DNA of 50,777 bases, counting the filler, from Jimgerdemannia flammicorona (taxonomy: Eukaryota): assembly GCA_003990765.1 (NCBI GenBank). It is 2 parts of 2 records of this genome, joined end to end, with 100 filler letters (N's around TTAATTAATTAA, not from the genome) between each part and the next. Parts side by side here need not be neighbours in the genome. Positions count along the whole stretch, not along the records: positions 25,440 to 50,777 come from RBNJ01000847.1; 1 more part is not named here. One strand, given 5' to 3'. Made by a program: the position numbers and the translations under genes. Below the pieces are notes generated by a model. That model saw only the letters and a program-made list of their open reading frames with translations, was not told the origin of the DNA and ran no database searches. Numbering within the stretch: position 1 is the stretch's first letter; every line of letters starts with the position of its first letter. This document shows, piece by piece, positions 64 to 48,352 of this stretch.

Positions 64-64
<1 letters not shown>

Positions 65-780
65 CAGAAGCATTACAAGAAGCCAATGCCCTCTCTATAG
101 CTAACTTCCTGTACTGAGAAATCACCTGCCACTATAAGACATCTAAGCAAATCACAACAGACCATGACATGAAATTTGTCAATGGATTCTATGAGATAAT
201 GTATCAGAAATATAAGATCCAGCACATCAAGATCACCACATATCACCCTCAAGAAAATAGACAGACAGAGAGAACCAATAAGACCCTCAAGAACATCCTG
301 ATGAAAATCTCAGAGATATATGAGAATTGGGATAATTATCTCCCAACTGCCCTCTCTGTCCTACAAGATATATAGTCACAGCGCATACACTTTACTCCAA
401 GGAAACTGCTCTTCAGAGAAGAAGATTCTGATGGAACCTCAGCCACAAATCTAGACCTAACTTGGAGATAGATTGATGCAGAAATCCGGAGACTACACCA
501 AATCAGAAAAAAGGCTGAAGATTACATCATTAAGTCACAAGCACTGATAAGAAAGAATGTAGAAAAGAATCACAAGACCCTAGAATCCATCCAAATTGGA
601 GAAAAGGTCCAACTGTATCAAAATATGATAGAAGCCTCATAGTTGTGAAAACTGGAGCCCAAATGGAAAGAACCCTTCTATATGTAAGATATCAAGGGAA
701 CTACCTTTTGGCTTAGAAAAATCTTAGAGATCATACTGCCTACCATGGTGCACAGGAACAGACTCAAGAAGTACTATAAA
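64..780 (+). pseudogene. Decayed Ty3/Gypsy integrase (end of DDE core plus C-terminal GPF/Y region) of LTR family A
   Basis: Translation gives TTYHPQENRQTERTNKTLKNIL...WDNYLPTALS (integrase core end) then IGEKVQLY..KLEPKWKEPFY..VHRNRLKKY; several stops; truncated on the left by a 63-nt poly(A). Confidence 0.9.
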
Positions 781-1395
781 CCTATATAAGAGAAGCAAAA
801 TATGATGACCACCTATGAGGTTCTAGTTCATAAATCATAACAGTATGTCCTGTGACCAGCAGACTATCTGTCTGAACTATTCTCTAAGGGATATGGTACC
901 AGCAACTACTTATCCATGAGACTTTCAAAGCTAGAGGAGTTCAAACCATCAACTGATTGATCAAGATCAGAATTAGGCCCTTGCTCTATATAAAGAGAGC
1001 AACTCTTCACTATTATGCCAAAATATATAAGAAAGATATCAGCCCATAAATACCACTTTTTGATCCCTTGCTAGAGGTTATGGAATCAGCAAATTTTTCA
1101 GAACTAGACTAATAAATAAGGATGCTTGAGAAGATTCTTATTTAGGAGAAAGATGTAATAGTGACCCCAGAATGATGACATCAGCACAGGAGACAGCCTT
1201 TCCTTACAAGCCACCAGATCAGAGCACAAGAAGATCATATGGTATATGAGATAAGTAATGATGACTAACTGTGAGTCATTGTGACCACAGTTCAGATATC
1301 TTGAGGAATATAAAAGAAGGATTAAGGAACTACAGTAGCAGTAACCAACAAGACCCACTAATCCCAAAATAGCTCAAAGACTTACTACAAATAAA

Positions 1396-2202
1396 ATGCC
1401 TGCTGCTTGCCAAATCTCAAGATCAAGAAACCATCAAGATATCTCAGTTGAAGAAAGAATATTCCAAGACATCAGAAGAGCTATGAGGACCTGCTCAAGA
1501 AGAACTTCTAGTGTCAACCTGGGTACTAGTAACCCTTATCATTATATCCTCTACTACCATGAAATGGAAACAAGGATCACTATTGCTACTGAATGCCTCC
1601 AAATGTGGTAGGAGTATGAAATAAGAAACCTCCTCTGCTAAGAGTTCCTACAGGCCAGCCCCCAAGAGTTACAAGATGCCACTTCTATAGAAATATGTGA
1701 AGCAAGGACAGCTAAGAAGATCTATTAGATCTTCAGGCATGTACCATGGTCAATCTCTAACTTAGAGTATATTAGAGTCTCAGATTTTAGAGACCTATCA
1801 TTCCACCATATCAATTTACTAGAAACCAGGATAGCTACAGAAGCCCAGTCCACTATCACCCTCAATAGTGATAAAGTAGAAGACTTCTGGCATCCCATCC
1901 TCCAGGACAACCCAGACCAATTCCTGCAAAGATTGATCTCAGTATTCTAAGGCCCAAGCATCTAGGTTAGACCTCTCTAAGACCCCACATTTGTCCCCTA
2001 TTTTATAGAAGAGAACCTCATAGACTAGAGAGCCCCAGACCTCCTTCCTACCACTGCTGAATATGATGACATCATTGGTGATGACATCATCCTATACAAC
2101 ATTGAAGTATATAAAATATATGATAATAATGAATTCATGAATCTCATCTCCTTCAGTAATAATGAGGATAAAGCCCCTATAGTCTTGAATATTCTGCTCT
2201 AA
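1396..2202 (+). pseudogene. U3-encoded ORF of LTR family A (269 codons, unknown family)
   Basis: Single frame MPAACQISRS...IFQDIRRAM...W*EYEIRNLL...IFRHVPWSISNL...FWHPILQDN...NILL*; several internal stops correspond to sense codons (CAG/CAA/TGG) in the antisense copy. Confidence 0.75.
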
Positions 2203-3252
2203 AGTTCTTTGGTTATACTGAGTTATGCCAGCACCAGCATTCTGATGTAATACTGAGTTATATCAGCACTGGCATTCTGATGTAATACTAAATTATTTCA
2301 GCACTATTTTCCTATACTACCAAAATTATACCAGTATCCTGAACCTATATAACCATCAGTACCGACCCTGGAACTTAGCAGTTTTTCCTATTCTGACATT
2401 TTATTTTAGTTATTGGAATTTATATTTAGCTTTATATCTTAGCAACTATTGAATTATATTTTGTATAAATATTGTCATATAGTGGTTGCTGAGTCTTTCA
2501 AATATACCAGATTCTCTTCAAGATATATCTCTTAGACTAACTCAAGTTTATTATAAGCAAGTTTTTATTAAAGTATCTTCCCAAGGTCTTATAGTTCTCA
2601 AACTTCTTATTTTTAACTATCTTATTATCTCTTAGATTGCTTGTAAGAGATTATATGTAAGTAAACTGGAACTGACTTTATTTTAGAGGAAATAAGAGAG
2701 GTATTTATACAAAATATAATTCAATGGTTACTAAGATATAAAGCTAAATATAAATTCTAATAATTAAAATAAAATGTCAGGACAGAAAAAACTGCTAAGT
2801 TCTAGGGTTGGTACTGATAGTTGTACAGATTCAGGATACTGGTATAATTCAGTATTACATCAGAATGCTGGTGCTGATATTATTTAGTATTATATCAGAA
2901 TGCTAGTGCTGGCATTATTCAGTGTAACCAAGAGACTTAGAGTAGAATATTCAGGACCATGGGGGCTTCATCCTCATCATTACTAAAGGAGATGAGATCT
3001 GTTATCACATAGATTGCATGTTTTGCATACTTTATACATATTGCATATCTCATGTATGTTGCACAGGATGATGTCATCACTGATGATATCATCATGTTTA
3101 GTGATAGAGAAATCGGGAGCTCTCTAATCTATAAGGTTCTCTTCCACAAAATAGGGAATAAATGTGGGATCTTGGGGGGGTCTAACCTGGATACTTGGGC
3201 CTTGGAATACTGAGATCAATTCTTGCAGAAATTGGTCTGGGTTATCCTGAAG

Positions 3253-3823
3253 TAGTGCTCCTAATAAGTCAATTTAATTTGGATTGGATTTGGATTGATT
3301 CGGATTGAATCCCATCCAGATCAACTCAGATGGGATTCGAATCCTATCTGAATGGATTCAAATCAACCATTGTTTTGATTTCCAAATTAGACAATTAAAT
3401 GTTTACATCAATAACTCAATGAATAATCCTCTAAATTTAATGATCTTGGTGTCATTCGAAAGCCCTTAATAAGGCCTATCTAATGATACCAAGAACATTG
3501 AAATCGGATCATGCATTGCTGAGTTGTGAAGGAAACCATCTGAATTACCAATTTTGGAAATTCTTCAATTTGCCGATTTTGGAAATTTCATCAAATAGAA
3601 CATTTTTCTTAATATCTTGGCAATGTGTAATCTGATTTTAATGTTCTTGGTATCATTAGAAAGGCCCTATTAAGGGCTTTCAAATAACACCAGAATTATC
3701 AAATATAGATAATTATTCATCAAGTTATTGATGTAAACATTTAATTGTCTAATTTGGAAATCAAAACAATAGTTGATTCGAATCCATCTGAATCTCATCC
3801 AGATTGATTTGTTTGGAGCACTA
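3253..3823. mobile_element. hAT-like MITE (571 bp) with long internal inverted repeats
   Basis: TIRs TAGTGCTCC...GGAGCACTA; 8-bp TSD TCCTGAAG (3245-3252)/TTCTGAAG (3824-3831); ~3350-3520 is inverted at ~3620-3790; absent from the sister LTR copy. Confidence 0.9.
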
Positions 3824-4036
3824 TTCTGAAGAATGGGATGCCAGAAGTCTTCTACTTTGTTGCTGTCAAGAGTGATAGTGGACTGGGCTTCTGTAGCCAC
3901 CCTGACTTCTAGTATATTAATATGGCAGAATGACAGGTCTCTGAAATCTGAGACTCTAACATACTCCAAGTTGGAGATCGATCATAGTATATACCTGAAG
4001 ATCTGATGAATCTTCTTAGCTGTCCTTATTTCATAT

Positions 4037-4290
4037 CTCTTTGACTGTTTTGCACCTATATTTAGAGGCAAGATTAAAATCATAATAGCTTTTAAAAAAA
4101 AATTTACCAATAATTTTTTATATAATAATTCTACCTTTGGTAAAAATTTTACAAAAAATTTTTTTTTTGTTTTTAAACAAATTGAGATATATTTTTAACA
4201 GAAAAACAATGTTTCAAAAAATCATTTTTTTCAAACTTTAATTTGTCTGCTAAATGATTTTAAAAGATGATCTTATCTACAGACAAAGGA
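4037..4290. mobile_element. Small AT-rich TIR element (254 bp) with ATAT TSD
   Basis: Ends CTCTTTGACTGT...ACAGACAAAGGA (imperfect 12-bp TIR); ATAT on both sides (4033-4036, 4291-4294); absent from the sister LTR. Confidence 0.75.
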
Positions 4291-5018
4291 ATATATCTAT
4301 AAGAGTGGTATCTTGTAGCTCTTGGGGACTGACCTGTGGGAACTTCCAGCAGAGGAGATTTCTTATTTCATACTCCTGCCACATTTGGAGGCATTTGGTA
4401 GTAATGGTGATTCTTGTTTCTATTTCATAGTGGTAGAGAATATAATGATAAGGGTCATCAGTACTTGTTGACACTAGGAGTCCTTCTTGAGTAGATCCTC
4501 ATGGCTCTTCTGATATCTTAGAATATTCTTTCTTCAACTGAGATACCTTAGTAGTTCCTTGACCTTAAGGTTTGGTGAGCAGTAAGTATTTTATTTGTAG
4601 TAAGTCTTTGAGCTATTTTGGGATTAGTGGGTCTTATTGGTTGCTGCTACTATAGTTCCTTGATCCTTCTTTTATATTTCTCAAGATATCTGAACTGTGG
4701 TCACAATGACTCACAGTTAGTTATCATTACTTATCTTATATGCTATATGATCTTCTTATGCTCCAATCTGGTGGCTTGTAAGGAAAGACTGTCTTCTATG
4801 CTGATTTCATCATTCTGGGGTCACCATTACAATACTTCTCTTATTTCTTCTGAAATAAAGTCAGTTCTGGTTTACTTACACACAATCTCTTGCAAGTAAT
4901 CTAAGAGATAATAAGACAGTTAAAGATAAGAAGTTTGAGGACTATAAGACCTTAGAAAGGTACTCCAATAAGAACTTGCTTATAATAAACTTGAGTTAGT
5001 CTAAGAGATATACCTTGA

Positions 5019-11609: not shown

Positions 11610-13096
11610 TGTAAGAGGGTTGCTTTTTAGGGTAACTATTACATAGTTCTGGAAGGGTTTTCTGGAAGTTCTGGATATTCTGAAAGACTGTTTTCTTATG
11701 GTCAAGATCAATTTTATATAGAGTACATTCTCTATACTTATTGATTTCAAGATCAGGTTGATGTCTCAACCAAAGTCCTTTTTCAGACTAGTTCTGGATG
11801 TTTAGGATTTTTCATATTTCAGGAAGTTCAAGAAACTAAGACCAGCTTAGTTGAATTGACATATCACTACAGACAATACCCAATTAGGAAATTTCGTGAT
11901 GGGGTTAGGAGTAGGACCTAACAGAGAGTAGATTTACTTAAAAGTGATTTGTGGGTTATTAAATAGGTTTATTCACTATTCATAATATTGCTATACTAGG
12001 AGTAGTTATGTAAAGAGATATTATGGGGAAGTGCTCAGGAGTTGTATTCAAATTGTTCAGGTCTGAGATTCTGAGGTCTGGAAGAGGGAGTATTTATACT
12101 AGTGAGGGGCTATCTAGACTATGCTAAATATGGATATAGCACTTAGTATCTTGCTGAGTCAGAATGCAGTTATGTAGTATAAGTGTGATCTAATATACCA
12201 AGAGATCATCTAACTACTGAGTCAGTTCACAGTTATGTCATATAAGGCTAATCTAACTATACTATGACTGCTAAGCTATTTATAGATTTAGATGCTGTCT
12301 GGTTAGTCTTTGATAATATCACTATTGATGACATCATCTCTGACAAAGTCTGAGCAGTTTTCTAACTTCTGATATCATCAGTTTCAAGGTGTCATTACTT
12401 CTATCTTTTGCAAGATTAAGGCTGTCCTTGGTGGTAGTGATTGTACAAGGATAACAGGTCTTGGTTCTCTTTTTTTTTAGCCTGCTGGTATATTTGTGAG
12501 GACTGGCCATCCTTGTCTAGGGTGAGGGCTCCCAATGTTATGACTGGGGATTTGAACCTCTTGGAAATGATATTTTTTGTAATCTGAGGCAATTTCTAAT
12601 AGTAATATCTGTTACATAGATAGCTTGAGATTGGTTTCGATGATGTCAGCTTTCTTGAGTTCAGATGAAGTATCCATCACTCTCCAATAGAGGTGACACA
12701 GATAGAGCAAATAGAGTTATTCAAATGTGTTTTGCTTCCACTAAGTAATGAGATCTTGTATAGTATATCTTAGTCTTAAGTTTGATAAGTATAGTTCATG
12801 AACTTTGGTGGATGAGATAGGGTCCTTCTTGTCTCAGTTTGAGTTTGATACTTTTAGTTTCCTTTTTGTAATAGTACAGTACTCCAAACTAGTTATAAAG
12901 GTTCAGAGTCAGTCTTATAGTTGTAGTACTTCTTCTAGTATTCTTGTATCTTGGCAGTAAGTTCTCATGTTTGCTGGTGTATTTTGTGTAACCAGATGAT
13001 CTCTTCAGTAACTTGTTTTGTAGCCTCACATGTGGTTTCTAAATTGGTTCTAAGAATGATATGTAGTTTTGGTGGCTTAGAGGTTATGTACTTACA
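11610..13096 (-). repeat. 3' LTR of family B (1487 bp)
   Basis: Direct repeat of 16487-16900 plus 18133-19211; TATAAATA on the minus strand at 12091-12098. Confidence 0.95.
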
Positions 13097-13499
13097 ACTC
13101 TCTCCTTCTTAGCTTTCAATGTCCTTATGGCCTTCTAATTTGTTCTAGTGTTGTTGTACTATTTGGATGGTTCTTGTGGCTATGTTTGTTGAGGATTTAT
13201 TCAACTTTGTACTCTTCTTGGTCATTGATAATGACAGGTACAGGTGGTTCTGTAGTTTAGTTCAGAAATATGTCTCAGACCTTCTAGAGTAAGGGTCTAA
13301 TATGGTTGTCAACTTTAAAAAAGTCTTCTTCAGAGTTCTCAGATTCTTCTTTGGATGGGCAGATAGAGATGGCAAAGAGAGGGCATTTCTTGGCCAATTT
13401 CTTGAGCTATAACTTATTAATGTGGGTGATCTTTGGTCCAGGGTCACTAGAGCTAAGTGAGTCCTTTTCACCTTATAGTTTGAAGTTATAATATCCTTT

Positions 13500-13835
13500 C
13501 TTGATGGTCAGAGAATGATTTATCCAATCAATCATAGGGTTCTCTTATTTCAACCATGGGGTTCCAAGGATGATCTCATTGTCAGGAAGTGATACAATCT
13601 GGAGGATAACATGTACTCAGTAATCACTAATTCTGAAGGGCAGATTGCGGACTTCCTTGCTAATAATATGTGAGGTTCCATCAGCTATAGCAACTGCTTG
13701 AGTTTGTTGTACTGGAGAGGTGAAGACTTTGAGTCTGCTGGCTGTTTCTTTATTGATGAAGTTGCCTGAGGCACTACTGTCTATCATAATCTTGACAGGT
13801 GCTCAGTTGATAAAAGCTTGAAGTGTAAGCAGTTT
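13500..13835 (-). pseudogene. Retroviral-type aspartic protease (decayed)
   Basis: KLLTLQAFIN*APVKIMIDSSASGNFINK...NEIILGTPWLK*ENPMIDW. Confidence 0.9.
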
Positions 13836-14048
13836 GTCTGATCCAATAGTAGTGATTTCAGTTGTAGGGGCTTTTCTTCTGTTGGTTCTTCTTTGAGCCA
13901 GTTCATTGATATAAGAGAAGCAATCATCAATCATTCAGAAAGAGTACATTCCAATACCATGAGGGCATTAGCCACTTGGTACATATCTGTCTTTGATTTT
14001 CTTATAGAATTGTTCTTCTTTATTCATGGTAGGTTGGGCTGGGGTCTT

Positions 14049-14459
14049 GTTTGATGAGCCAAATCCTTTGGATCCTTAGATGGTGGGCAGTAGTTCAGGG
14101 ACTTTCTTGACTATCAGGGTTGACTCAATTTTCTCAAATAGAATCTGGGCAATACAGAAACCAATGGAGATCTTGAAGGGTGTCCAACTATGGTTTCAGA
14201 TGAGAATAATAATTTCACCTGTGTAATCTTCATCAATGGCTCCTCCTTCTACTAAGAGTCCTTTCAATGCTAGGCTGCTGTGACAGCATATTCTTCCAAC
14301 ATATCTTTCAGAGATTTGGATGCTGATTTCTGTGTAGACTTGCTTGACTTCTCAGTTGGAGACTGTAGCTTCTTTGGCTGTATACAGGTCATATCCAGCT
14401 GCTTTTTGACTTTCTTTGATTGGGGTCTTAGCAGTTTGTCTTAACTTGACAAAGTCCAG
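14049..14459 (-). pseudogene. dut: Trimeric dUTPase domain (decayed) between gag and protease
   Basis: LDFVKL..AAGYDLYTA..GRICCHSSLALKG..GGAIDEDYTGEI..CIAQILFEKI..*GSKGFGSS: all five dUTPase motifs in order. Confidence 0.93.
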
Positions 14460-14519
14460 TGTTCTGGTGATCAGGTTATTGAGGTAGTGTAGAGTAGTAA
14501 TAGTTGCTCATATTGCTAT

Positions 14520-15780
14520 TTGGGGTTTTCAATTGGGGCAGGCACTGGCTATGTATTCTGTCTTTCAGCAATAGAAGCATGCTCTGCTTCTTTGAAGTTC
14601 ATTTCTTTCTCCTTCAGTAAGTTTCTTGAAGATACTCAGTTAGGTGGATTTATGATTTCTGGGTGTCTATGAGGTAGATATAGAGAGAGCTTAGGATGCT
14701 TCATACTTGGGTTCTTCTTTCTTAGTCCAAGTCTTTTCCTTATTGTTGAATTGTCTTCAGGGCAGAATTGGTCCAGCTGTTAGGATTCACTTGACCATAG
14801 TCTTGATTCTTGCTAGGCACCATTGTTGGTGATTGCAACTAACTGAGCAGCCTTGTTCTTGAATTTTTCTAGTAAGCCATTCAGATAGTGTATCAAATAA
14901 ATGGTCTGCTCTTGTACCATTTTGTACTTCATCATTGGTAATATATTCTAGGCCAACAGTGTTCAGGAGTGACTCAAGTTTTGTACAGAAGGTTTTGAAT
15001 TCTTCTTTACCATGTACATCAAATTTGAGGTTGTGGAGTTTTACTTGAGATTCAGCAATCATAGTTTTGCTACAGTATTGAGCAATTATGAGTTATTTGA
15101 GTTCAGGGGCTGCAGGATGGGTTCCATATCCTGGGGTATTATTTGCTGCATTCTGAGCAACTACTATAGGTCAGGTGTCCCATGTGAGGGGTTTTTCAGG
15201 AAGGGTTTGCCACCATTCTTCAGCAGATTCTCAGAAGAATATAACAACTTGGCAGACATAGACTATAGTGATAGCAAAGAGTTGTTCCAGAGTATGGTCT
15301 TGATTGTTTATCAGAAGGTAGTCAGCAACTCACTCATTGGTCCATTGATTGGCTTTGAAGTTGGTGTCAACTATACTAATAAAGCTTTGGACTTCTTGTA
15401 TAGTACCATTGAAGGTAGGTAGGCTCAGATTTTTGGTAGATCAAGTCTGTTTGGCTAAGATAGTAATGGTTGCTACCATTATTGCTACTTGGGCTGTAAG
15501 ATCTAGAATCTGTTGGTTTGCTATATTGTTTACTGGAGGTGATTGGACTACTAGTAGTAGTATTACTGGTACTACTTGAGATACTGGTGCAGAGTGTGAG
15601 AATATTCTTTGAGTCTGTGTAAGTTGCTGGAGTAGTAGTTGTGGGTCTGGAGTAAGAACTTGATAAATAGCTGTTTGTTGCTGTATAGGTGTGTTCTGTC
15701 CTGATGGAGGTATGTCTCCTTCAGTAGTATATCTGGGATCAAGTTTACTGAGATACTCCTCCTCCTCTTCAGTTTGGTCT
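14520..15780 (-). pseudogene. Gag (decayed) with C-terminal CCHC zinc knuckle
   Basis: KPKSEPTYLQWYY/LPTFNG-like region, FKTFCTKLESLLNTVG, and ACFYC*KTEYIASACP at ~14535-14582; start uncertain. Confidence 0.75.
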
Positions 15781-16470
15781 CCATGTAGTTGGGTTTGCTT
15801 AGCATCAAAGTAGACAGAATCAGTTGTATATCTGATTTTGGAAGGACTTAATTCAAAGTCAAGTTCTGGTTTAGTATTAGCTTCAGGTTCAGGTAGAGCA
15901 GTAGCAGGACCTGCTTCTGATTCAGAGTTGGGTAGTTGATAAAGGGTTTCTCTTGCTTCTTCTTTAAGAATATAGTGGGCCTTGCTATTCTGGAATTGGT
16001 AGTATAATGTGGTCTTGGTCCTGGTACAGTGAAAGTTAGTAGAGTTGAGCCACTTGACTATAGAGGCTTGGGCTTTATGAGAGACTAAGGCTAGAAAGAC
16101 TGCTGATGGTTGTCCTAGGTTGCTTGGATTTGTGAAGCTGACAAAACTCTTGTTGAGAAGAGTAAAGAAGGCTTCAATAAGACCTTCTTTGTTTTGACTT
16201 ACTGGATATAGAGCAAGGAGTTTGGTGAATAGGGTTTCACCTATTTGCTGATTTAACTAGAGTATTTCTTTCTTCAAATGACGTTTGTCCCACTTGTTAC
16301 AGATGTGGAGATCAAATTGTCCTTATACATCAGGTTCAATTCTCTTTAGATTGTCAGATAGTTCAGGATAAATTCCAGTTCAGAGATTGGGCTTTATACC
16401 AACTTGTAGGAATTCTCAGAGGGGTTTGTAGCAGGGTGAGAAAGCATCTTGAAGTGGAATTGGATTATAA

Positions 16471-16483
16471 ATCACTGCTACCA
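16471..16483 (-). promoter_or_regulatory. Primer-binding site, probably initiator tRNA-Met
   Basis: TGGTAGCAGTGAT begins 3 nt after the 5' LTR end on the minus strand. Confidence 0.75.
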
Positions 16484-16486
16484 AGT

Positions 16487-18084
16487 TATAAGAGAGTTGC
16501 TTTTTAGAGTAACCATTACATAGTTCTGGAAGGGTTTTCTAGAAGTTCTGGATATTCTGGAAGACTGTTTTCTTATGGTCAAGATCAATTTTGTATGGAG
16601 TACATCCTCTATACTTATTGATTTCAAGATCAGATTGATGTCTCAACCAAAGTCCTTTTTCAGACTAGTCCTGGATGTTCAGGATTTTCCATATTTCAGG
16701 AAGTTCAAGAAACTAAGACCAGCTTAGTTGAATTCGCATATTGCTGCAGACAATACCAAATTAGGAAATTTCATGACAGGGTTAGGAGTAGAATCTAACA
16801 GAGAGTAGATTTACTTAAGAGTAGTTTGTGGGTTATTAAATAAGTTTATTCACTATTCATAATATTGCTATATTAGGAGTAGTTGTATGAAGGGATATCA
16901 CATCTCTTTCTCCACTACCTTACTAGTCACAAGGTTTGGTAGGCAATCTTCCAAGTCTCCTTTCTCCTATTATTACCCCCTCTACCTCAGGTTGGTTTGC
17001 TGTACCTACAAGAGCATGGTGGGAGGAGGGCAATGGTGATAAGTTGCCCCTTTATCAATATCAGATCAGTGTCTTCTTCACTTTTTCGCAGTTTCTAGTG
17101 CCTTCAGTTGTATCTGGAGTGCATTCGTTTTGGTGTGGCACCTTCTTTCTTTTGCTATCACTAACAAGATACTGTCTTGATGCATCATGAGTTATATAGG
17201 GAGTCAGCCAACCTTGGGCATCAAGTGCTTAGTGTAGATTACCTATAGGTCCTCAGTGCCTGTGGTGGGACTCTCTGGCTTTGGCAAGCTTCCTGGCAAG
17301 CACAGTTCTAGCATAGGTGACTGTTTTTTGGATGTTATCAGGATGGGAGGAGAGATGGCCATCATAGATAGGAGGATGGGCAATAACAATGAACCAGTAG
17401 GGTGCTAGGCTGGGGGTGGTCATTGGGGCTGAGGCAGACAATATTTTGGTGGGGCCTTTCGATTGGTTGGTGGGGGGTGGAGTAGTGCAGGGGCCAGCAT
17501 CCTGGCTGTACCCAACTGGAACCAGGAGCTGATGCAGTAATACAATTGAGGCCCACAGGCTTAAAGAGTGGGGCCTTCTTCATTTAGTAGTACCTGACTA
17601 GAACTAGAAGCTGATATGGCAACATGATTGAGGCCCACAGGCTCAGGGAGTGGGAGTGGGGTCTTTTCTGGCCCTAGCCCATATATAAGTCCTTTGAGGA
17701 AGGTGCTGTATGTAAGTTCTTTACTTACCTGCTTTGAATCTACTTTGCTCTCTATTGGTTAGTTGGAGGGTTTTTTCTTTGCCTCAGACTTTCTTTTGGG
17801 GTTTGGGAGGCTATTCTTTATTCAGTCCCAGTGCTGCTAGATCTGATGTGTAGGTGTGCTCTCATGTGTAAATGATGATCTAGCCCTGGTGAGCAGATAA
17901 GTCTAGTCTATGTTGTAGGGATCAACATAGCTAGTGTTTGACAGGTATAGCTGAAGTGGTAGGACTGCTGGACAATTTAGTAGCCTAGGTTAATTGGGGG
18001 ATATTGTTCAGTGAGTAGTGGAGAAGGGTTTTGGCCTATATAGTCTAGGTTCCCTTCCAATAAAAATCTGCAGGACTATGAGTC

Positions 18085-18125
<41 letters not shown>

Positions 18126-19211
18126 AATATTATGGGGAAGTACTCAGAAGTTGTGTTCAGATTGTTCAGATCTGAGATTCTGAGGTCTGGGAGAGGGGGT
18201 ATTTATACTAGTGAGGGGCTATCTAGACTATGTTAAATATAAATATAGTACTTAGTACCTTGCTGAGTCAGAATATAGTTATATAGTATAAGTGTGATCT
18301 GATATACTAAGAGATCATCTGACTGCTGAGTCAGTTCACAGTCATGTCATATAAGGCTAATCTAACTATACTATAACTGCTAAGCTATTTATAGATTTAG
18401 ATACTGTCTAGTTAGTCTTTGATGATATCACTATTGATAACATCATCTCTGGCAAAGTCTGAGCAGTTTTCTAACTTCTGACATCATCAGTTTCAAGGTG
18501 TTATTACTTCTATCTCTTATAAGATTAAGGCTGTCCTTGGTAGTGGTGGTTGTACAAGGATAACAGATCTTGGTTCTCTTTTTTTTTAGCCTACTGGCAC
18601 ATTTGTGAGGACTGGCCATCCTTGTCTAGGGTGAGGGCTCCCAATATCATGGCTGGGGGTTCAAATCTCTTGGAAATGATATTTTCTATAATTCAAGGCA
18701 ATTTTTAGTAGTAATATCTGTTATGTGGATGGCTTGAGATTGGTTTCAACAATATTAGCTTTCTTAAGTTCAGATGAAGCATTCGTCACTCTCTAATAGA
18801 GGTGATACAGATAGAGCAAACAGAGTTGTTCAAATATGTTTTGCTTCCACTAAGTAATGAGATCTTGTATAGTCATAGTATATCTTGGTCTTGAGTTTGA
18901 TAAGTATAGTTCATGAACTTTGGTAAATAAGATAGGGTCCTTCTTGTCTCAGTTTGAGTTTGGTACTTTTAGTTTCCTTTTTATAATAATATAGTACACT
19001 AAACTAGTTATAGAGGTTCAGAGTTAGTCTTATGGTTGTAGTACTTCTTCTGGTATTCTTATGTCTTAGTAGTAGATTCTCATATTTGCTGGCATATTTT
19101 GTATAACCAGATGATCTCTTCAGTAACTTATTTTATAGCCTTATATGTGGTTTTTAAATTAGTTCTGAGGATGATATACAGTTTTGGTAGCTTGGAGGTT
19201 GTATACTTACA
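16487..19211 (-). repeat. 5' LTR of family B, interrupted by retroposon copy 2
   Basis: Matches 11610-13096 over its full length once 16901-18121 is removed; terminal TG mutated to TA. Confidence 0.95.
16901..18121 (+). mobile_element. 1.2-kb non-autonomous poly(A) retroposon, copy 2
   Basis: Poly(A) 18089-18121 after AATAAAAATC; TSD AAGGGATATCA (16890-16900)/AAGGAATATTA (18122-18132). Confidence 0.9.
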
Positions 19212-30100: not shown

Positions 30101-32078
30101 ACAAAGGCAAAATTCTGAATTAGTATTGAGGCCACTACTTTATATAGAATGAGGACATTGGGGTCAAACCATGCTGCTGGGAAGTCATATAAAACTTCTG
30201 GGCTATGGATCTCTAGTTTTTTGAAGCAAGAGGACAGATGTTGCCAGCATTATATCAGATGACATTATGTTTAGCAGCAGTACACTTGTTGTACTGTAGC
30301 ATAAAAGCTCTGGCAATGCTCTTAGACAAGTGGCTTGAAGTTGACAAGTAGCTAGACCCAATATAAGTAGATAAAATGGACAGGAAAGGGAAGCCTTATG
30401 TGCTCACTTGATCTCTTTTACAGAACTCTCTGATAAGGCAGGAGATAGGGGGCAAGGACCCTGGTGGGCCTTCATAGGCACACCAAGGCATCCAGAACAG
30501 TTGTGGTAGTTTGGCATAGTAGAGACCAAATTCCAGCTCACCTTCTTAGCCTTTTCGGTGGCATCTACAGATATGGTGGTAGAGGATTGGAGAGTGGGGA
30601 CACTCTTTTTCAACCAGGTGGAACCAGTGGCAGCAAGAGCAAATATGTATTTAACACCTAGAGTAATGACATCAGGGTGCTTCATAAGCTTCTCAACTAT
30701 GACTTTGTGGGTAATAGTGGCAATCTCTTTTAAAGGGATGAGGATGCAGGGACTGTCAGGTAGACTATAGTAGTGGTAGCTTTGGTAGTGGCAGTGGTGG
30801 TAAGATAGCAAGATTAATATATGACAATATCAAAACCATAGAGTAGAAACAAGTTTGTCTTGGTTCTATCAGTAGCAGTGAGGGTGGCAATATTCTTGCC
30901 AACCCTCTGGGTAACATTGATCAGAAACTCAAAGAAGGCAAGGGCTTCCATAGATATCACTATAGCTTTGTTGATTTTAGCACACTAGTTCTTAGTGTAC
31001 TGGGTAGCAGTGATCTGATTGGTTGTGGCAGCCTCAATCATGGCTTCAGTACAGCACTTGGCTTCTGCAGATGTAGTAGCAAGGGTGGTGTCATACTGTT
31101 CCTCCAGAAGAAGAGCAATTGCAGTAGCAACCTTCTTGGAAGGGGTAAACTTCCAATCAGTAAGTTGGGCCTGCAAAAGGTCAGCATAGCACTCATATAT
31201 GGTAGCTATCTTGAGGGCATGAAGTACTCTGGTGCAAGCAGTACAGAAGGCAATATGGACCTTGGTAGAAGTAGCAGTCAAGTAGATGGTCAGGTCATTG
31301 AACTTTACCATATTGGTGAAGGAAGTAATGGGGACAGCAGCATCGCTATCTACATTCATATTGTTTATCATGTTGTATATTATTAAACAAGTAGACAATA
31401 GAGGAATAGTTTAGAGTAAGATATGATACTGATACAGCAGATATAAAGGTCAGTGTTAAAAGGTCAAGAAGTAGGAAACAATAAGCTTATGAAAATTTTC
31501 ATAATGAAACAGTAGAGTAGAATAAAGTGTTTTCTGAAGCAAGGTACAATTGATCTGCAACCCACTCATTGTACCACAGTATGTGGTGGTTTTTATTCAA
31601 AATTGAGAACAAAGTTTGAGTACAAGAGATACAGATCTAACTCTGGAATTTCATAATCAAAATGGTGCATATATAAGTACCCAGACCTTGCTCTAATCTA
31701 AACAAAAGTCTGAATTGGGCATTATCAATATATATATGTGACAGGCCATTAAAAACCCAATATAGAAATGATCAGAAAAAGGTACTGATCATGTGATCAA
31801 ATGTTACATATATATAAACAAATACTAAAAACAGACCTAGACCAATGATGATCACATATTGTCATGTGATTTTCAGTTATAGGTTTAAAAATCTAAAAAT
31901 TATTAGCACCTGAAGGTGCAGGTATCAGGCCTAGAGCCTCATAATCATTATGGAGTAGAGCCTTAGCACTGGAGCAAGTGAAGTAAGCAGAGATAGATAG
32001 GCATCACAGAGCATAGATATGCAGGCATCAGATCTAGAGCCTTATGCTGGAGGTTGTCTGGCAATTTTTCATAATTTT
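27180..32078 (-). mobile_element. Penelope-like retroelement copy 1 (pseudo-LTR - ORF - pseudo-LTR - A-rich tail)
   Basis: ~700-bp direct repeats (27211-27905, 31380-32078); decayed RT motifs NFGPKFV, LPMFHILPKVHK, SIAMGTNCTLDLTNL; T-rich tail 27180-27210. Confidence 0.88.
29230..29486 (-). mobile_element. 5'-truncated non-LTR retroposon 3' end (257 bp)
   Basis: Poly(T) then ATAGTCACTTGGA; 17-bp TSD AGAACTCTAGTAGA(T/C)CT (29213-29229, 29487-29503); absent from Penelope copy 2. Confidence 0.9.
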
Positions 32079-35000: not shown

Positions 35001-36506
35001 GTTACATGCCTTGCAAGTGTCTGATCATCTGCTCAGCTGAGCCATTACTACTGGGCAAAAGTTCCACTGATTTATTGATAATCTAATTGTCTTTATGCCT
35101 ACAATTATGGACTTAGCCTCAATTTTTGGTGCTGTATATCCTCTGCACCATTATATTGAATAGAAAGTCTTATCCACTAGACTGTGCCACTACTTAGACC
35201 TGGAAATCTCAGTTGCACCATTCTGCAAAGGCTGTTTTGCCAAATTTTCCTATAGTATGCAGTTTGTCAACTGGTTGAGCAATCACCCTAGGAATACACT
35301 GTATTTATATATTGTGAATGAGGCTTGCTGCCTATTGCTACTCTGCTCATCTTACCATGATTGGCTTGATGAGTATCACTCTTTGGCTGAATTTCTGGTT
35401 TACAGGAAAGGATATTCTATTGATGTTGTGACCACTCAATTGAGTTTAGTGGATTGGCTTGAGGTTCAAACTTCACTTTTAACCCCTCTTCTTGTTTCTC
35501 ACCCCCCTATTCCCCACTCTGCTTTTTCTCCCCCATTGCTTATCATCTAATATAATATGACTCAATGGCTATATCAATAACCTGACAAGACTCTATATAT
35601 TACTTTGCTTCATTTTGGTTTCCCTGCAATCACCTGACAACTAATTATTACTCAGAAGAATGGTTTTACCATTCTTAATACCATCTCAAACACCAGCTTT
35701 ACTCTAAGTCCTCCTTAAAGGTCACACTGCCTATATGTGACATGTGATGTTTGAAAACATAAAAAATTGCCAGACAACCTCTGGTCTGAGACTCTAGGCC
35801 TGACACCTACATACTTATACTCCATGACACCTGTCTACCTCTACTCACTTTGCTTGCTCTGGTGCCAAGACTCTACTCTGCTCTGGTTGTGAGGCTCTAG
35901 ACCTGATGCCTGTATCTTTAGGTGCTAACAATTTTTAGGGTTTTAAACCTATAAGTGATAATTATATGATGACACATGATCAATCATTGGTCTAGTTCTA
36001 TTTTTAGCATTTGTTTATATATATATAATATTTGATCATGTGACTGGTACCTTTTTCTAATTATTTCTATATCAGGTTTTTAATGGCCTATCTTGTATGT
36101 AGATTGATTATATCTGATTTAGACTTTTGTTTGGATCAGGGCAAGGTCTGAGTACTTATACACCATTCTGATTCTGGAATTCAGAGGTTAGATCCATGTC
36201 TCTTATACTCAAACTTTGTTCTCAATTTTGAATAAAGACTACTATATACTGTAGTTCTATGAGTAGGTTATAGATCGATTCCACCTTGCTTTGGAAAACA
36301 CTTTATTCTGCTCTACTGTTCCATTATAAAAATTCATATAAGCTTATCATTTCCTACTGCTTGACCTTTTACCACTGACCTTCATATCTACTATATCAGT
36401 ATCACATCTCACTCTAAACTATTTCTCTATTGTCTACTCATTTAATAATAAAAATAAAATAAAATAAAATAAAATAAAAAAAGAAATAAAATAAATAAAT
36501 AAATAT
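32076..36506 (+). mobile_element. Penelope-like retroelement copy 2
   Basis: Repeat 32076-32580 recurs at 35941-36448; decayed ~1050-codon ORF (~32600-35750) with NISPP*LTSELTYILNFGPKFV, LPVFHALPKIHK, SIAMGTNCAPDLANL, FIDNLIV, YLDLEI, HPRNT..RKGYS; (TAAAA)n tail. Confidence 0.9.
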
Positions 36507-37410
36507 ACATATGCTACTCCAGTCCAATATATCACTATAGCTTGAGATTGGATGAATAATGTACATATATGCCACTTTAGCTTGAGACCAGGTAAATGAT
36601 AGATATATACTACCTCAGTCTGATATACTACTTTAGCTTAAGATTAGATAAATGATGTACATATGCTGACCCAGTCCAGTATGCTGCTTCAGCTTGAGAT
36701 CAAGTAGACAATAGATATATATGCAACTTCAGCTTGAGACCAGGTGAATAATAAATATAGATCACTCTAGTCCGATATATTACTTCAGCTAGAGATCAGA
36801 TAAACAATAGACATATGCCACCCCAGCTTAATATGCTACTTCAGCTTAAGAACAGGTAAACATTAGATATTTATACTACTTCAGCTTGAGACCAGATAAA
36901 TAATAGATATATACTGCTCCAGCCTGATATGCTATTTTATTTTGAGATTGAGAGAATGATAGATATATACCACCTCAGTACAATATGCTGCTTCAGCTTA
37001 AGATTAGGTAAACAATAGATATATATGCTACTTTAGCTTGAGGCCAGATAAATGATAAATAAATACTACTGTAGCCTAATATGCTACTTCAGCTTGAGAT
37101 TGGGTGAATTATAGATATATGTTGTCTCAGCCTGATATACTACTCAGCTTGAGATCAGGTGAATAATGAATATATATATCACTTTAGCTTGAGACTAGAT
37201 AAATGATAGATATGTGCTGTCTCAGTCTGATATACCACTTTAGCTTGAGACTAGGTGAATGATAGACATATGCTGCTCTAGTCAGATATATCAATTTAGC
37301 TTAAGATCAGGTGAACAATAGATATATGCTACTTTAGCTTGAGACTGAGTGAATAATGAACATATACTACTCTAGCCTGATATACTACTTCAGTTTAAGA
37401 TTGGGTGATC
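36507..37410 (+). repeat. Tandem array, right arm part 2 (~900 bp)
   Basis: About 18 copies of the CTTCAGCTTGAGA core, alternating 38-bp and ~57-bp units. Confidence 0.92.
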
Positions 37411-38151
37411 ACTTTAAGCATATGCTTTAAACTCATTGATATATTCATTATCCTTATCCTTATATCTATATATTTCTAACATACTAGAGAAATGTAAAAT
37501 ATAATAAAATAATATTTATATATTGACAGATCACAATTACTCTATTTTTCTGATAATAATTATCTTTCATATCTTTACATACAGACTCTACAGCTTCACT
37601 ATTTTGAGCTTTTCACTTATATATAAAGGCTGTATATATATCTACTAACTTCATGAGATAAAGATAGATTCCCCTACTATTTATCTTGTAGAGAATTAAA
37701 GTAAAATCTTTAATAAGACTATTATATAATTTCACTATAATGCTAGCTGATAGTCAAGTGAATTATCATTGTAGTTAAATACTATAATATTAAATATATG
37801 AATAAATTAGTTAATAACTTAATAATTTATTTAATATAAATATTTAATAAATAATAAACTAAACTTACTGTTCTACCCTGATAGCTGAGATTATTATCTT
37901 ATTCTTCTATTTTATCTGATAAATCATATTGTTGAAATATATATTGTGATGTACACAATTGACAATGGAGTACCAGTGACTGCTAAGATCAGATGACATA
38001 ATGGCATGACAATCAAATAGGCAGCCTGACCCATTAGGTGATCATTCTAAAAGAAGACAAGATGATCTGAGCCAAAATGAAGACCATGTTATTTAAGGAA
38101 CCATACTCCGCCTCAGGGATCGGCACCAAAGAACCAAGTATCCACCACACA

Positions 38152-39096
38152 ATGCCTCCCATTCGCCAAACCAACCAGACCTCCTGCCACTCTACCCCTT
38201 TTCCTGGCCCAAAGACCCTGATTTTTGAAGCTATCAAGAAGGCCATCTGGTGCCCAGATACTTCCAAACACTTGAACTTCTACACTGAGGACCTTGGACA
38301 CTTCATCAACTACCAGTATATAATGACCCAATAGCTCAAAGATACTACCGAACGAATGACCCTCTGGCATGACTACGAAATCAGACACCGCCTTCGCAAT
38401 GAGACTCAAGAAGGCGACCAGGAAGACCTCATTGCTGAAATGTTAACCACTAGCCGGCTAATCAAGAGAGCTCTCCGTGTCCACCAAATCTTCTGCCATA
38501 TTCTCTGGGCCATAGCACACTTGCAAGGAGTAATGGCTGGCAGCCTCTCCCATCTTTCAACTGAAGATGCTGACTGGATAGAATCTGAAGTAGCCAACTC
38601 TACTGGCAGCAACTGTGTTGCTATAGGAAGCCAACAAACCGAACCTACTCAACCAGGTTTCTATACCACCCCACTCCGAGACAACCATCAAGGTCACCTA
38701 ATGAGTCTTATGGAGATATTTGAAGGACCACCCATTACCATAGAAGCACCTGTTGGAGCTACCCCAACCACCCACCACCCTGTTAGCCACAATTCACATC
38801 TCATCATTTGGGAACTGAATCAACAAGAAGCCCAAGAGGTCCCTGTCTTTGAAGAGGAAGCCCAAGAACTCCAAAACCCTGCCCCTGAAGAAACCCCCTC
38901 TGACACTGAAACTGACGAGTCTTCAGAAGAAGGAGAGGAGCAACAGAGAGTCTACCAGTCCTCTGTCCGCATTCAAGCTGTTCAAGGGTTGGAGAATGTT
39001 GTTGAAGATGACTGGCCACTTTTCTACCCCCTCACCTCTTGGCTGGCGCTTCCCCCCTTTGAGGAGAGATATGAAGAAGAAAACACAACCCAGTAA
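38152..39096 (+). pseudogene. U3-encoded ORF of LTR family D (314 codons, one internal TAG at 38332-38334)
   Basis: Track ORFs 38077-38334 and 38356-39096 share a frame; MPPIRQ..IFEAIKKAI..LWHDYEIRHRL..VHQIFCHILWAIAHL..acidic tail; homologous to 1396-2202. Confidence 0.8.
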
Positions 39097-39159
39097 TATT
39101 TGCCTGCTGCGGACGAAGGGTACTATTTCCTCTAGAGTACTGCCCATCAGCTGTGAGAA

Positions 39160-39450
39160 CCCAGCTTTTGTCAGCAAGTCCATTTCCAGCGTTACTACTC
39201 AGTACTACCATTTTCAGCATTTTTTGTCAGCAGGTCTGAATTCAGCATTGCCACCCTCCACAACCATTTCTGGCAACAATCATCGTATCATGTCAGCTCA
39301 TCCGAATCCAGCATTGCTACCCAGTACCACCATTTTTAGCGTTTTGTCAGCAAGTCAGCAACACCCGTTTTTAGCATTATCACTCTCCACAACCATTTCT
39401 GGCAACAATCAGCATTCCTGTCTGCTCATCTGAATCCAGTGTTGCTATCC
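39160..39450 (+). repeat. Imperfect tandem repeats between the U3 ORF and TATA box (enhancer-like)
   Basis: CTCCACAACCATTTCTGGCAACAATCA twice; TTTTGTCAGCA three times; recurring CAGCATTG. Confidence 0.7.
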
Positions 39451-40949
39451 CCTACAACCCAATCCGTAGTAAACAATAGCCTGCATCTCACATTGTGCAA
39501 GCCAATAGCATAGCAAATGTTTGCCACAACATAGTATACCTTAGCCGCCCCCATAGCTAGCAAACTTGTATAAATAACCCATATTCTTAGAGTGAATAAA
39601 CCTCAGTCAGCTTGTGTTTAAAAAGTAAAAAGGATTACAAAGAAACCACTGCCTCCAAGAGACCGGATAAATTCTGAGAACAAGATAACAACCTAGAGCA
39701 ATGGATCGCTTGGAAGTTTGAGTTAAAGAATTTTCTCTTGCCATGGAAAGAAAACGTTACCCGACCGCTGCCATTCAAGACCCAGCCAAGGATTCAAGAC
39801 TATGACCACTGCACATTCAGACCGCCATTTGAGATTCAAGACCCTGGCAACACAGCTAAAGAACCCAAGGAACCCAAGTTACCCAGCCAAAGGATACAAG
39901 ACCGCTGCCAAAGACCCGAACGACCGCCAGGAACCTTTCAAGTTAATAAGTCAAGATGGATGAGCGAGCCGTCAACCTCTGTTTTTCCGATCTACTGCGC
40001 CACAGACCACTTTAATTGACTGCATAAAGAGCAAGCCCGTTGTCGCCGCATAAATTCAAGACCATCACCGCCAAGTTTATCGCCGCCAGGAAACACCCTT
40101 TTCCACTAAACAATTGAGCCATCGACATCCTGAGCCAACGAACAAATGATCTCCCGCTATTATCGCACGTTTCGAACGACCTGTCACGTGACCATCGACC
40201 CGCGAACGTCACCAATGCCTTCAGTTATACATCGCGCGCTTCACCAAGTGGCACATTGAGCCATGCCAGAAGAGAACTAGGGATACAAACCCAACGCCAC
40301 AATATATATAAATATCTAGAGATATTTGTACTATTATAATATTAGAGATAAATATCTTATTAAAGAGCTCTTTATATTATATTTCTTGAAATCCTTTATA
40401 TATATTCCAGATCCTAAATATATTTAATAAAAAATCTTATAAATATAAATCTTCTTTATATATATTTAATCAATATTACTAATATATATTAGCTAGTATA
40501 TGAGTAAGAGTATATGGAGTAATATCATAAATCTCTTCTTGAGCTGCATATTGAGCAAAGTCAAATCAAATAATTTTTCTAAGTTCTTCTACAGCAGCTT
40601 CTGTAAGAATTGCATCAGAACATACTGTATTATGAGTAGGATCACAGATTAATTAATATAGGGATGTATTGGGTTCCTAGTATTCAGAAATATTTTAACA
40701 CTGATATTTTTATTTAAGGTATATGTAAATTGGGCATATGTAGGTTTCCTTTTATGATATTAGTATAGTGTATATTTATTCTACATATAATCTATCATTC
40801 ATTCTACTCAACACTTAATGTATACTTTATACTTTGTATATACTTTACACTTACATTCTATACTTCCATATATTTGGTAAATTTGTATGTACATTACACT
40901 TACATTCTGTACTTCTGTACATTTGTATACATTTTTCATTACCCTATGA

Positions 40950-46346: not shown

Positions 46347-48352
46347 TGTAAGAGGGTTGCTTTTTAGGGTAACCGTTACGTAGTTCTGGAAGGGTTCTCT
46401 GGAAGTTCTGGATATTCTGGAAGACCATTTTCTTATGGTCAAGATCAATTTCATATGGAGTACATCCTCTATACTTATTGATTTCAAGATTGGGTTGACG
46501 TCTCAACCAAAGTCCTTTTTTGGACTAGTTCTGGATGTTCAGGATTTTCTGTATTTCAGGAAGTTCAAGAAACTAAGACCAGCTTAGTTGAATTGGTGTA
46601 TCACTGCAGACAATCCCAGTTAGGAAATTTCGTGACAGGGTTAGGAGTGGGACTTAACAGGGAGTGGATTTACTTAAGAGTGGTTTGTGGGTTATGGAAT
46701 AGGTTTATTTGCTATTCATGATATTGCTATACTAGGAGTATTTGTGTGAAGGGGTATTGTGGGGAAGTATTCAGGAATGTTCTTGGGTGTTCAAGTCTGA
46801 AATTCTGAGGTCTGGGGGAGGGGGTATTTATACTAGTGAGGGGCTATCTGGACTATGCTGAATATAGATGTAGCACTAAGTGCCTTGCTGAGTTGGAATG
46901 CAGTCATATAGTACAAGTGTGATCTGACAAGTCAAGAGATCGTCTGACTGCTAGGCTATTTATGGGTTTAGGCACTTTCTGGGTAGTCCTCAATGACATC
47001 ACTATCAATTGCATCATCTCTGATGAAGTAGTCATCTAGGAATAATGGTTTACAGATTATTTCTCCTTGTTCGCTGAGGTAGTAATACATTGGGACTTCG
47101 TCTCTGTCCCACAGGATAGCATCATCAGTCTCATATGCTGGATAAGGTGTTGGTGGGCAAAGGATGGGTGTGTTGTCTTTGCTTTTATTAGATTTGCTGT
47201 CTGCATACCTTCTATAGATTACAGCACTATGAGTTGCAGGATTGTAGTAAGCTGGCAGCTGTGGTTCATGTCGCTCATACTTGGGTGGTGGAGTGGTTGG
47301 TTCGATCTCGAGGGTTGTCTGAAGGTACAGGTTGTGTTCTCCGGTCTCCTCATTGTAGTTGAAGTAATCAGGGGTGAATGCAGGTTAGTATTCATGCCGG
47401 TGGTCATTGTCCCAATAAGTCTCGTATGTAATTATGAACTGTTGTAAGTTCATTGGCAAGGTTGGCAGAGTGATCAGGGTTGGCAGAGATCCTTAGCTAG
47501 AGGTCATGTCGGTGTCAGAGGGATTGTTGTCTTCTGCTTCATCTTCATCGAAGTGGATTATATCATAGATGTCCTTCATGGTGTATCCAACTTGGGGCAT
47601 TGCAGGATTTGATCATTGGGGTGTGGGAAGGTTCTGTCTGTGGTTTCGACATACTCGAGGTACTTGTGGTTGAGTTCTTGTATCATATTGTCGATTTGGC
47701 CATAGGACAGAGTAGCAACCATTTCGCTGGTAGTAACTCAGAGGCAGGGAATAATGGTGCTGTACTCGTAGAAGAGTTCTCGATGTTTGCAGGCGATGAG
47801 CTTCTGGTGTTGAGACATCTGGGTAATATCTGTATCATGGTGGTGTTCGACCATGTCTTCCAGGAGGTGGCTGATCTGGTAGTAGCTTGAGATTTGTCTG
47901 ATTCAGTGGGCCTCGCTAAGCATGTTCAGAGCATTCCATCGGGCTTCCACAAAGTAGAGGGGTGCCAGGCTATGGATATTCATGAGGGGCAGAGGGGGTG
48001 TAGCTCGGTTGACAATGGCATTCTAGATGTCAGCATGGATACGGTTGTAGATCTCAGTGGTCATGTTTGTGTATTTGGAAGTTGTGGTTGTTGTTTGTTT
48101 TGGTTCTCTGTTTTGACGCATCTTGGTGCTTGGTATATATGCATTTGGTCCTGATTGGTAAGATTCCATTTGTGTAGATCTTGTGTTCTGTGACTTCATA
48201 TTGACTCAGTTTTGTGCGCTGTGACTTTGGTTTGACTCAGCTTTGTGATCAAGCAGGTGATTTCCAGATTTGTTCGGAGCTCGTGTGTGATTTCAGTGGC
48301 TTGTTCAGAGGGTGACATGTAATTTTGGTGGCTTGGAGGTTGTGCGCTTACA
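46347..48352 (-). mobile_element. Solo LTR variant C (2006 bp) related to family B, inserted in LINE ORF2
   Basis: TGTAAG...CTTACA ends; 5-bp TSD GTACT (46342-46346, 48353-48357); 46347-~47025 and the last ~40 bp match LTR B, the middle ~1.3 kb does not. Confidence 0.95.
47493..48136 (-). pseudogene. U3-encoded ORF of LTR C (~214 codons, one frameshift, few stops)
   Basis: (M)PSTKMRQ..IHADI*NAIV..WHPLYFVEARW..ISSYYQISHLLE..IACKHRELLYEYSTIIPCL*VTTSEMVATLSYGQIDNMIQEL..FDEDEAEDNNPSDTDMTSS*; TGA stops fit CGA deamination. Confidence 0.7.

Follow-up and report, generated by a model that had tools for sequence, protein, structure and literature searches.

A protein-coding frame lying wholly inside U3 of three long terminal repeat families in the fungus Jimgerdemannia flammicorona

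The DNA analysed here, referred to as the window, is a stretch of 50,777 nucleotides (nt), filler included, from the fungus Jimgerdemannia flammicorona (GenBank assembly GCA_003990765.1); all positions below count along the window, which consists of repeat-rich eukaryotic DNA with AT-rich spacers. Three families of long terminal repeats (LTRs), A, C and D, each carry an open reading frame (ORF) wholly inside the unique 3′ region (U3), between the 5′ edge of the LTR and the core promoter box GTATAAATA, and an additional element, F, serves as a comparator. The ORF coordinates and shared peptide blocks that an initial annotation had proposed for A, C and D were confirmed, as was the Met-Pro start, with ATA replacing ATG in C. 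The features of these elements are as follows:

64..800, plus strand: C-terminal part of pol (integrase), decayed, 5′ of LTR A (phmmer against the PDB)
1144..1153, plus strand: polypurine tract AGGAGAAAGA, immediately 5′ of LTR A
1154..2705, plus strand: LTR A plus copy, the 3′ LTR of an element truncated by the start of the window; opens with TGTAATAGTGACC (TGTAAT)
1309-1318, plus strand: TATA box of A, TATAAAAGAA, 87 nt before the ATG
1396..2202, plus strand: A copy of the ORF, 268 codons with 7 stops
2463-2471, plus strand: GTATAAATA box of A, 3′ of the ORF
2702..4831, minus strand: LTR A minus copy, truncated on its 3′ side, with two insertions (~3252-3826 and ~4036-4291)
4832..5018, minus strand: terminal 3′ portion of another LTR A copy, directly adjoining the A minus copy at its 5′ start
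11610..19211, minus strand: comparator element F, with LTRs at 11610-13096 and 16487-19211 and a 5-bp duplication, AATCT, on both sides
37945..40301, plus strand: solo LTR D, 2357 nt, TGTGATG...GCCACA, with TG..CA ends
38090..38098, plus strand: TATA-like box TATTTAAGG, candidate promoter P1 (motif only), 62 nt 5′ of the D ATG
38152..39096, plus strand: D copy of the LTR-borne ORF, 314 codons, starting Met-Pro-Pro
39169..39459, plus strand: imperfect direct repeats between the D ORF and the core promoter (self-BLAST, 39169-39331 versus 39291-39459, 75.6%)
39568..39576, plus strand: core promoter box GTATAAATA (P2) of LTR D, followed 19 nt later by AATAAA at 39595-39600
46347..48352, minus strand: solo LTR C, 2006 nt, TGTAAG...CTCTTACA, flanked by AGTAC as a perfect 5-bp duplication
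46825..46833, minus strand: GTATAAATA core promoter box of LTR C
46968..47384, minus strand: acidic stretch in another frame that contains DRDEVPMYYYL and probably encodes the C-terminal portion of the C protein
47493..48136, minus strand: C copy of the ORF, N-terminal part, with ATA for ATG and 6 stops

The LTRs of A, C and D are genuine, and their status was checked family by family: D and C are solo LTRs, and the plus copy of A is a 3′ LTR. For D, contigs from four public sequencing runs were aligned to window positions 37700-40500; the runs that match the window are soil metagenomes with small shares (at most 0.16). A 228-nt soil-metagenome contig (X1) represents the empty site, as it matches 37819-37940, then continues at 40302-40407 and lacks the 2361 nt between them; four letters at the join fit either side. 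This contig is only about 87% like the flanks of D, and the site may be orthologous or paralogous; in either case it identifies the 2357-nt unit as a discrete insertion with a short duplication. The duplication itself, ATAT or ATATAT, is ambiguous because D sits in an (AT)n run, with these letters on both sides between AT-dinucleotide runs. D is present as a single copy in the window. A second contig (from run X2) provides the 24 nt immediately 5′ of 37945, which end in the purine run AAGGGGCAGA, as expected for the sequence preceding a 3′ LTR. Additionally, many metagenome contigs match D only at ~39552-39606 and diverge on either side; since they share just that block, we assign it to the core promoter and poly(A) region, which places the D ORF in U3.

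The perfect AGTAC duplication delimits solo LTR C, which has both termini in common with the neighbouring element F; the latter is structurally complete (LTRs, polypurine tract, primer-binding site and duplication) with an internal region of only ~3.4 kb, in which no gag or pol was detectable with Pfam. The tract AAGAAGGAGAGAG precedes the 3′ LTR of F as its polypurine tract, and TGGTAGCAGTG, 3 nt past the 5′ LTR, occupies the position of the primer-binding site, which we take to be of the initiator-tRNA (tRNA-iMet) type. The 5′ LTR of F is split by a 1.2-kb insertion (16898-18121) that is partly an inverted copy of 10950-11519. The LTRs of C and F are alike over 111 nt at the start and ~680 nt at the end, whereas their middles are unrelated, comprising 1212 nt with the ORF in C versus 633 nt without it in F. 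U3 is thus modular, with ORF-bearing and ORF-less versions. A plus-strand frame (48817-49182), ~460 nt outside solo LTR C on its 5′ side, by eye resembles a fragment of a reverse transcriptase of the long interspersed nuclear element (non-LTR) type and has no Pfam match.

Element A is cut short within its pol gene by the start of the window, where positions 1-63 are a run of 63 A. Positions 64-~500 correspond to the C-terminal half of an integrase, matching prototype foamy virus (PFV) integrase (E=1.3e-6) and residues 1211-1310 of Ty3 Gag-Pol 7q5b (E=4.9e-5) by phmmer against the PDB; the Pfam family rve_3 reached 15.5 bits on this integrase, under its cut-off. Integrase is accordingly the final pol domain preceding this 3′ LTR, as in Ty3/Gypsy-type elements, the stretch that would place reverse transcriptase relative to it falling outside the window. 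Position 1154 is a true unit boundary, since in the A minus copy TGTAAT is preceded by other sequence, which belongs to the 3′ end of another A copy. The 3′ end of the plus copy, near 2705, is uncertain by a few nt and reads ...GGTAT, with no clean CA. On the minus strand at 4832-5170, a family A LTR end and LTR start meet with one T between the units, in what is either a tandem LTR or a circle-junction-like arrangement; the upstream A copy there carries an insertion that includes poly(T) and is bordered by a repeated CAAGGTATATCTC. Additionally, a 436-nt near-perfect palindrome (80%) at 3352-3787 is inserted in the inverted A copy.

Across the families, TG...CA termini are seen in D (TGTG...CACA), in C (TGTAAG...TTACA) and likewise in F, while A starts with TGTAAT. 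Polypurine tracts precede A and the 3′ LTR of F, and in one metagenome contig a purine-rich tract precedes D; no primer-binding site was seen for A, C or D because none of their 5′ LTRs lies in the window. At 1.55 kb (A), 2.0 kb (C) and 2.36 kb (D), these LTRs are unusually long, as their U3 holds a whole protein-coding gene. The ORF starts 207 nt (D), 242 nt (A) and 216 nt (C) from the LTR 5′ edge, within the range of 207-242 nt first reported, and GTATAAATA lies 3′ of the ORF in each copy, in agreement with the proposal that the ORF is upstream of the core TATA box. This box occurs seven times in the window against 1.08 expected (none of 100 shuffles reached seven), and six of the seven matches are sense-oriented inside LTR copies, namely A(+), A(-), the two LTRs of F, C and D. 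The LTRs of A, C and D were said to lack visible nucleotide similarity, and none was detected among them at E≤1e-10, nor with a word size of 7 at E≤1e-3.

At the protein level, D and A align by BLASTP with E=3e-17 and 26% identity, colinearly over 176 aa, which bears out the block-by-block alignment first made by eye. The BLASTP comparisons of D and A with C were not significant. A family profile was then built from 21 members, and all six reading frames of the window were scanned with it, stop codons being treated as X. The profile matched D, A(+), three pieces of the inverted A copy (4292-4468, 3796-4041 and 3112-3282) and a region of C (47675-48076, minus strand; profile positions 13-138), the last with 9.4 bits. 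In 21 controls, the best scores were -4.5 on reversed translations and at most 0.3 in 20 local shuffles; C is therefore a weak but above-null member, consistent with its earlier description as a more distant match. The peptide DRDEVPMYYYL in C resembles the terminal motif of the family, as compared by eye and unscored. The LTRs of F gave no match to the profile in the same six-frame scan.

That the units are independent short elements or mis-bounded internal regions, or that the ORFs are chance frames, is largely refuted, and we regard it as highly improbable. The absence of a second copy of D in the window and the lack of a clean CA at the 3′ end of A would be compatible with such a reading. 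The claim that the ORF lies inside true LTRs nevertheless stands on the empty site, the target duplications (AGTAC in C, for instance), the polypurine tracts, the primer-binding site and the integrase context, while the homology between D and A and the existence of intact relatives argue against chance frames.

The D ORF is interrupted by a single TAG at codon 61 (38332-38334). It is 75% identical, at 98% coverage, to an intact 325-aa protein, P0004, which has Q at the position of the D stop. The A ORF compared with the intact protein P0012 is identical at 183 of 245 aligned positions (75%). All eight stops evaluated in the window copies fall at Q, R or W codons of intact relatives, and 158 of the 175 differences between A(+) and A(-) are transitions (90%). 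Since the stops lie at such codons and the differences are mostly transitions, the window copies are decayed descendants of intact genes; all of them are dead, through C>T/G>A transitions. The decay pattern of the A copies (1154-4831) is a repeat-induced point mutation-like or methylation-deamination signature in this Mucoromycotina genome.

The intact 325-aa relative of D was obtained, with its cluster mates, by a word-indexed search. An exhaustive profile search of 1.84 billion representatives yielded 11 proteins at E≤1e-3, with lengths of 40-342 aa, and none of the 11 is a longer fused form of the ORF protein. The intact relatives, 246-342 aa in length, come from soil metagenomes and include an intact A-type protein. 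The 11 relatives form approximately seven subfamilies, with 19-39% identity across subfamilies. The conserved blocks are LNLxxxDLGHF, WxEYEIGHxL, AxKxHQIFRHxP and DNPDQxLQxLxxxFEGPPI, and the conserved C-terminal end consists of P-[LMW]-x-[LFY] preceded by an acidic run. Colinear protein similarity has been kept in intact relatives while the similarity of the surrounding DNA is gone, which we take as indirect evidence that the ORF protein has been under purifying selection.

Metagenome contigs searched with P0004 gave no locus, while those searched with P0013 gave one 1535-nt locus, L001; viral contigs searched with P0004, P0012 and P0013 gave no match. In L001, positions 1252-1275 contain AGGAGGGAGGA, which resembles a polypurine tract and lies 11 nt after the ORF stop, followed by TTGTAATAAG (TGTAAT), which resembles an LTR start. 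The upstream and downstream flanks of L001 and the 207 nt at the 5′ end of D showed no alignment above shuffled controls, leaving a tandem-LTR reading of L001 unsupported.

The protein is predicted to consist of an all-helical N-terminal domain of ~150 aa, modelled with confidence, and a disordered, proline-rich, strongly acidic tail with the terminal motif, as had been suggested for a conserved helical protein with an acidic end. In the AlphaFold2 model of the full D-type protein, helices extend to about residue 160 and disorder follows, with a predicted local distance difference test score (pLDDT) below 50 in the tail. The model of the N-terminal 200 residues of the L001 protein is all-helical, with a pLDDT of 77.9 and a predicted template modelling score of 0.75. 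In full-length members of the D, A, P0013, L001 and P0025 types, the tail has a net charge of -14 to -29; in the weakest subfamily, P0021/P0027, it is -2.

Searches for a known relative of this protein were negative. Pfam gave no match for the D and A queries and a chance-level match to RAMP for C (E 0.013, 16 bits versus a 27-bit cut-off); for 21 family members at E≤1, it gave three chance-level unrelated families (best E 0.044). None of these Pfam matches was significant. A sequence profile search of the PDB returned no match at E≤10, the ESM Atlas search gave no usable match, and Foldseek found nothing at E≤1e-3 for either model against the PDB, nor against the viral folds of BFVD. VIA-align against 48,161 chains gave best Z values of 3.0 and 4.1 for the two models. 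A Retrotrans_gag or capsid-like fold was found neither by Pfam nor among these chains, none of which reached Z≥5, although a fold miss does not exclude a family. Helix-turn-helix (HTH) domains of the ParB type aligned with model residues ~71-157 (VirB 3.7, SopB 3.7, ParB 3.2, Spo0J 3.0, KorB 2.9/2.7). We treat this modelled likeness to ParB, KorB and SopB as a lead within noise, since Z values of 2.7-3.7 are under the level meaningful for helical proteins.

In the established life cycle of LTR elements, the genomic RNA includes U3 of the 3′ LTR. As U3 is copied from the RNA 3′ end to both LTRs at each reverse transcription, the gene would be inherited with the LTR, doubled per insertion and left behind in solo LTRs. 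The persistence of the ORF in solo LTRs, as first claimed, is seen in both D and C. A TATA box 62-87 nt 5′ of the ATG and the LTR's own AATAAA on the 3′ side could make the unit a self-contained cassette of promoter, ORF and terminator, from which expression would be possible in 5′, 3′ and solo LTRs alike, without reliance on the 3′ LTR. The motif TATAAAAGAA lies 87 nt 5′ of the ATG in both A(+) and A(-) and 80 nt 5′ of it in the distant L001, and over the last ~29 nt of the leader and the start codon, A and L001 agree at 26 positions, as counted by eye. Taken as a whole, the reading that at least three Ty3/Gypsy-type LTR families carry a whole accessory gene in U3 as such an LTR-contained cassette is the one we consider probable.

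Several points weigh against this reading. Each copy in the window is a pseudogene, and the family is tiny and known solely from metagenome ORFs, with none of its 11 relatives named. Element F has the termini of C and no detectable ORF, so the ORF is dispensable for at least some relatives. In the L001 subfamily, the gene may lie just upstream of the LTR rather than inside it, in the position of a third internal frame (ORF3), because the run resembling a polypurine tract and TGTAAT follow its stop codon. The upstream TATA motif TATAAAAGAA occurs twice in the window versus 0.52 expected, a count reached in 9 of 100 shuffles, and no upstream TATA is recognisable in C. Lastly, no fold or sequence match favours any particular function (best structural Z 4.1).

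The statistics of the upstream motif bear directly on a competing account, considerably less probable in our judgement, in which the gene is LTR-borne without a promoter of its own. Expression would then come only from the 3′ LTR, via genome-length or spliced subgenomic RNA in the manner of the sag gene of mouse mammary tumor virus (MMTV), and solo copies would be silent relics. Along with the non-significance of the TATA motif, this account is favoured by the place of the 3′ LTR U3 in genomic RNA and by AG-ended pyrimidine stretches just 5′ of the ATG in D and A, which by eye are candidate splice acceptors. It is countered by the matching spacing of TATAAAAGAA in A(+), A(-) and L001, where the leader is conserved while the rest of the LTR is without DNA similarity.

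The arrangement at L001 could also mean that the ORF originally belonged to the internal region as an ORF3, located between pol and the polypurine tract, that it was swallowed into U3 when plus-strand priming moved upstream, and that it is now a functionless hitch-hiker. This explanation would account for the tract-like run and TGTAAT 11 nt past the L001 stop and for the fact that element F manages without the ORF. It fits poorly with the same U3 position in three LTR families dissimilar in DNA, with the colinear protein blocks and the existence of intact representatives, and with the first 111 nt shared by C and F, which set the ORF module inside an otherwise shared LTR frame; we judge it improbable.

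Under the favoured cassette reading, the N-terminal domain might bind either a host factor or the LTR of the element itself, for example at the direct repeats 5′ of P2, and the acidic tail might recruit transcription or chromatin machinery, in the way of foamy-virus Tas or human T-cell leukaemia virus (HTLV) Tax. By analogy with this two-part build, a trans-acting regulatory adaptor would be the most likely single option for the function, although we hold it only tentatively; counter-silencing or the hijacking of a host factor is nearly as likely. In a bolder version, which we find doubtful, each LTR would be a full gene for an element-encoded transcription factor, whose weakly HTH-like domain would bind the repeats and whose tail would activate the core promoter. 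Each insertion would then yield two copies of the gene, and solo LTRs would keep a distributed pool of activator or anti-silencing factor even once the coding elements had been deleted; L001 would record how a shifted polypurine tract brought an internal ORF3 into U3.

The remainder of the window was surveyed with Pfam using the 98 stop-free ORFs among 115 of at least 75 aa. The scan gave a weak rve_3 match, an LRR_6 match and a sub-cutoff match to DUF2861 (E 0.0008, 19.5 bits) at 28216-28440 on the minus strand. Interspersed with the repeats are two host genes that appear intact, coding for a leucine-rich repeat (LRR) protein (22210-23604, plus strand) and a peroxiredoxin (23942-24457, minus strand; Pfam Redoxin). 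The latter shares 91% identity with its counterpart in Jimgerdemannia flammicorona and 68% with the one in Endogone sp., which identifies the host as an Endogonales fungus (Mucoromycotina). Just upstream of LTR D, a tandem array of five to six copies of a ~152-nt unit, 64-80% alike, occupies 36492-37408, and it has inverted relatives 10 kb away (25698-26189 and 26989-27179). A ~4.7-kb repeat is present in two inverted copies (27179-31901 versus 36482-32063, 81-82% identity) and holds an open frame of 302 codons (32791-33696) for which Pfam gave no match. Runs of 44 N occur twice, at 25340-25383 and 25396-25439.

Accessory genes of LTR retroelements are normally internal. To our knowledge, a gene wholly in the terminal repeat is textbook matter only for MMTV, a vertebrate retrovirus whose sag, an ORF in U3 of the LTR, encodes a superantigen that is a membrane glycoprotein. 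The ORF described here is like sag in being a complete accessory frame in U3 of an unusually long LTR, carried to both ends by reverse transcription. It differs in belonging to a fungal Ty3/Gypsy-type element and in its predicted product, a soluble-looking helical domain with an acidic tail. At E≤1, Pfam returned no MMTV-related family, such as MMTV_SAg, for the 21 members.

Foamy-virus tas/bet and lentiviral nef are 3′-end ORFs that overlap U3. Tas activates transcription by binding DNA; it has an acidic activation domain and is expressed from an internal promoter of its own. These genes share with the present ORF a 3′-proximal accessory character and a location partly in the LTR, and Tas is our favoured working analogy. 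Their ORFs, however, extend only partly into U3, which contains the present ORF in its entirety. No likeness to Tas/Bel1, Tax or Nef was found in Pfam (21 members), in the PDB profile search (E≤10) or among BFVD folds (E≤1e-3).

Among Ty3/Gypsy-type elements, Retand reportedly has an extra region between pol and the 3′ LTR, Cer1 is said to carry an additional ORF, CERV, and extra ORFs have reportedly been seen in bdelloid LTR retrotransposons. As described in the passages available on Retrosat2/RIRE, ORF0 lies upstream of gag-pol and is internal (PMC3485330). The present ORF resembles all of these as a lineage-specific, fast-evolving accessory protein of unknown or regulatory function in Ty3/Gypsy-type elements, some with very long LTRs. 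It is unlike them in its location, since those ORFs are internal and this one is in the terminal repeat, where it survives in solo LTRs. In Podospora, the LTRs of crapaud are modular according to the passages dealing with them, with a variable 5′ half and a conserved 3′ half (PMC10787394). To that extent they are comparable to the LTRs of C versus F, although no LTR ORF is mentioned in those passages (PMC10787394).

Our full-text literature searches turned up no description of an ORF embedded in the LTR of a retrotransposon, whether fungal or otherwise non-retroviral. One apparent match was rejected, as its wording meant within LTR retrotransposons and not inside the LTR. We read the whole-ORF-in-U3 arrangement as known from MMTV and the protein family described here as previously undescribed.

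Should the gene prove to be expressed, solo LTRs and the length of LTRs would take on a coding meaning in these mycorrhizal fungi, which are very rich in repeats, and the families described here would provide a second, independent example of U3 carrying a gene. The protein would represent a compact candidate regulator, comprising a helical domain and an acidic tail, that is directly testable. Gene and repeat annotation would also be affected, because LTR ORFs of this kind get masked as repeats.

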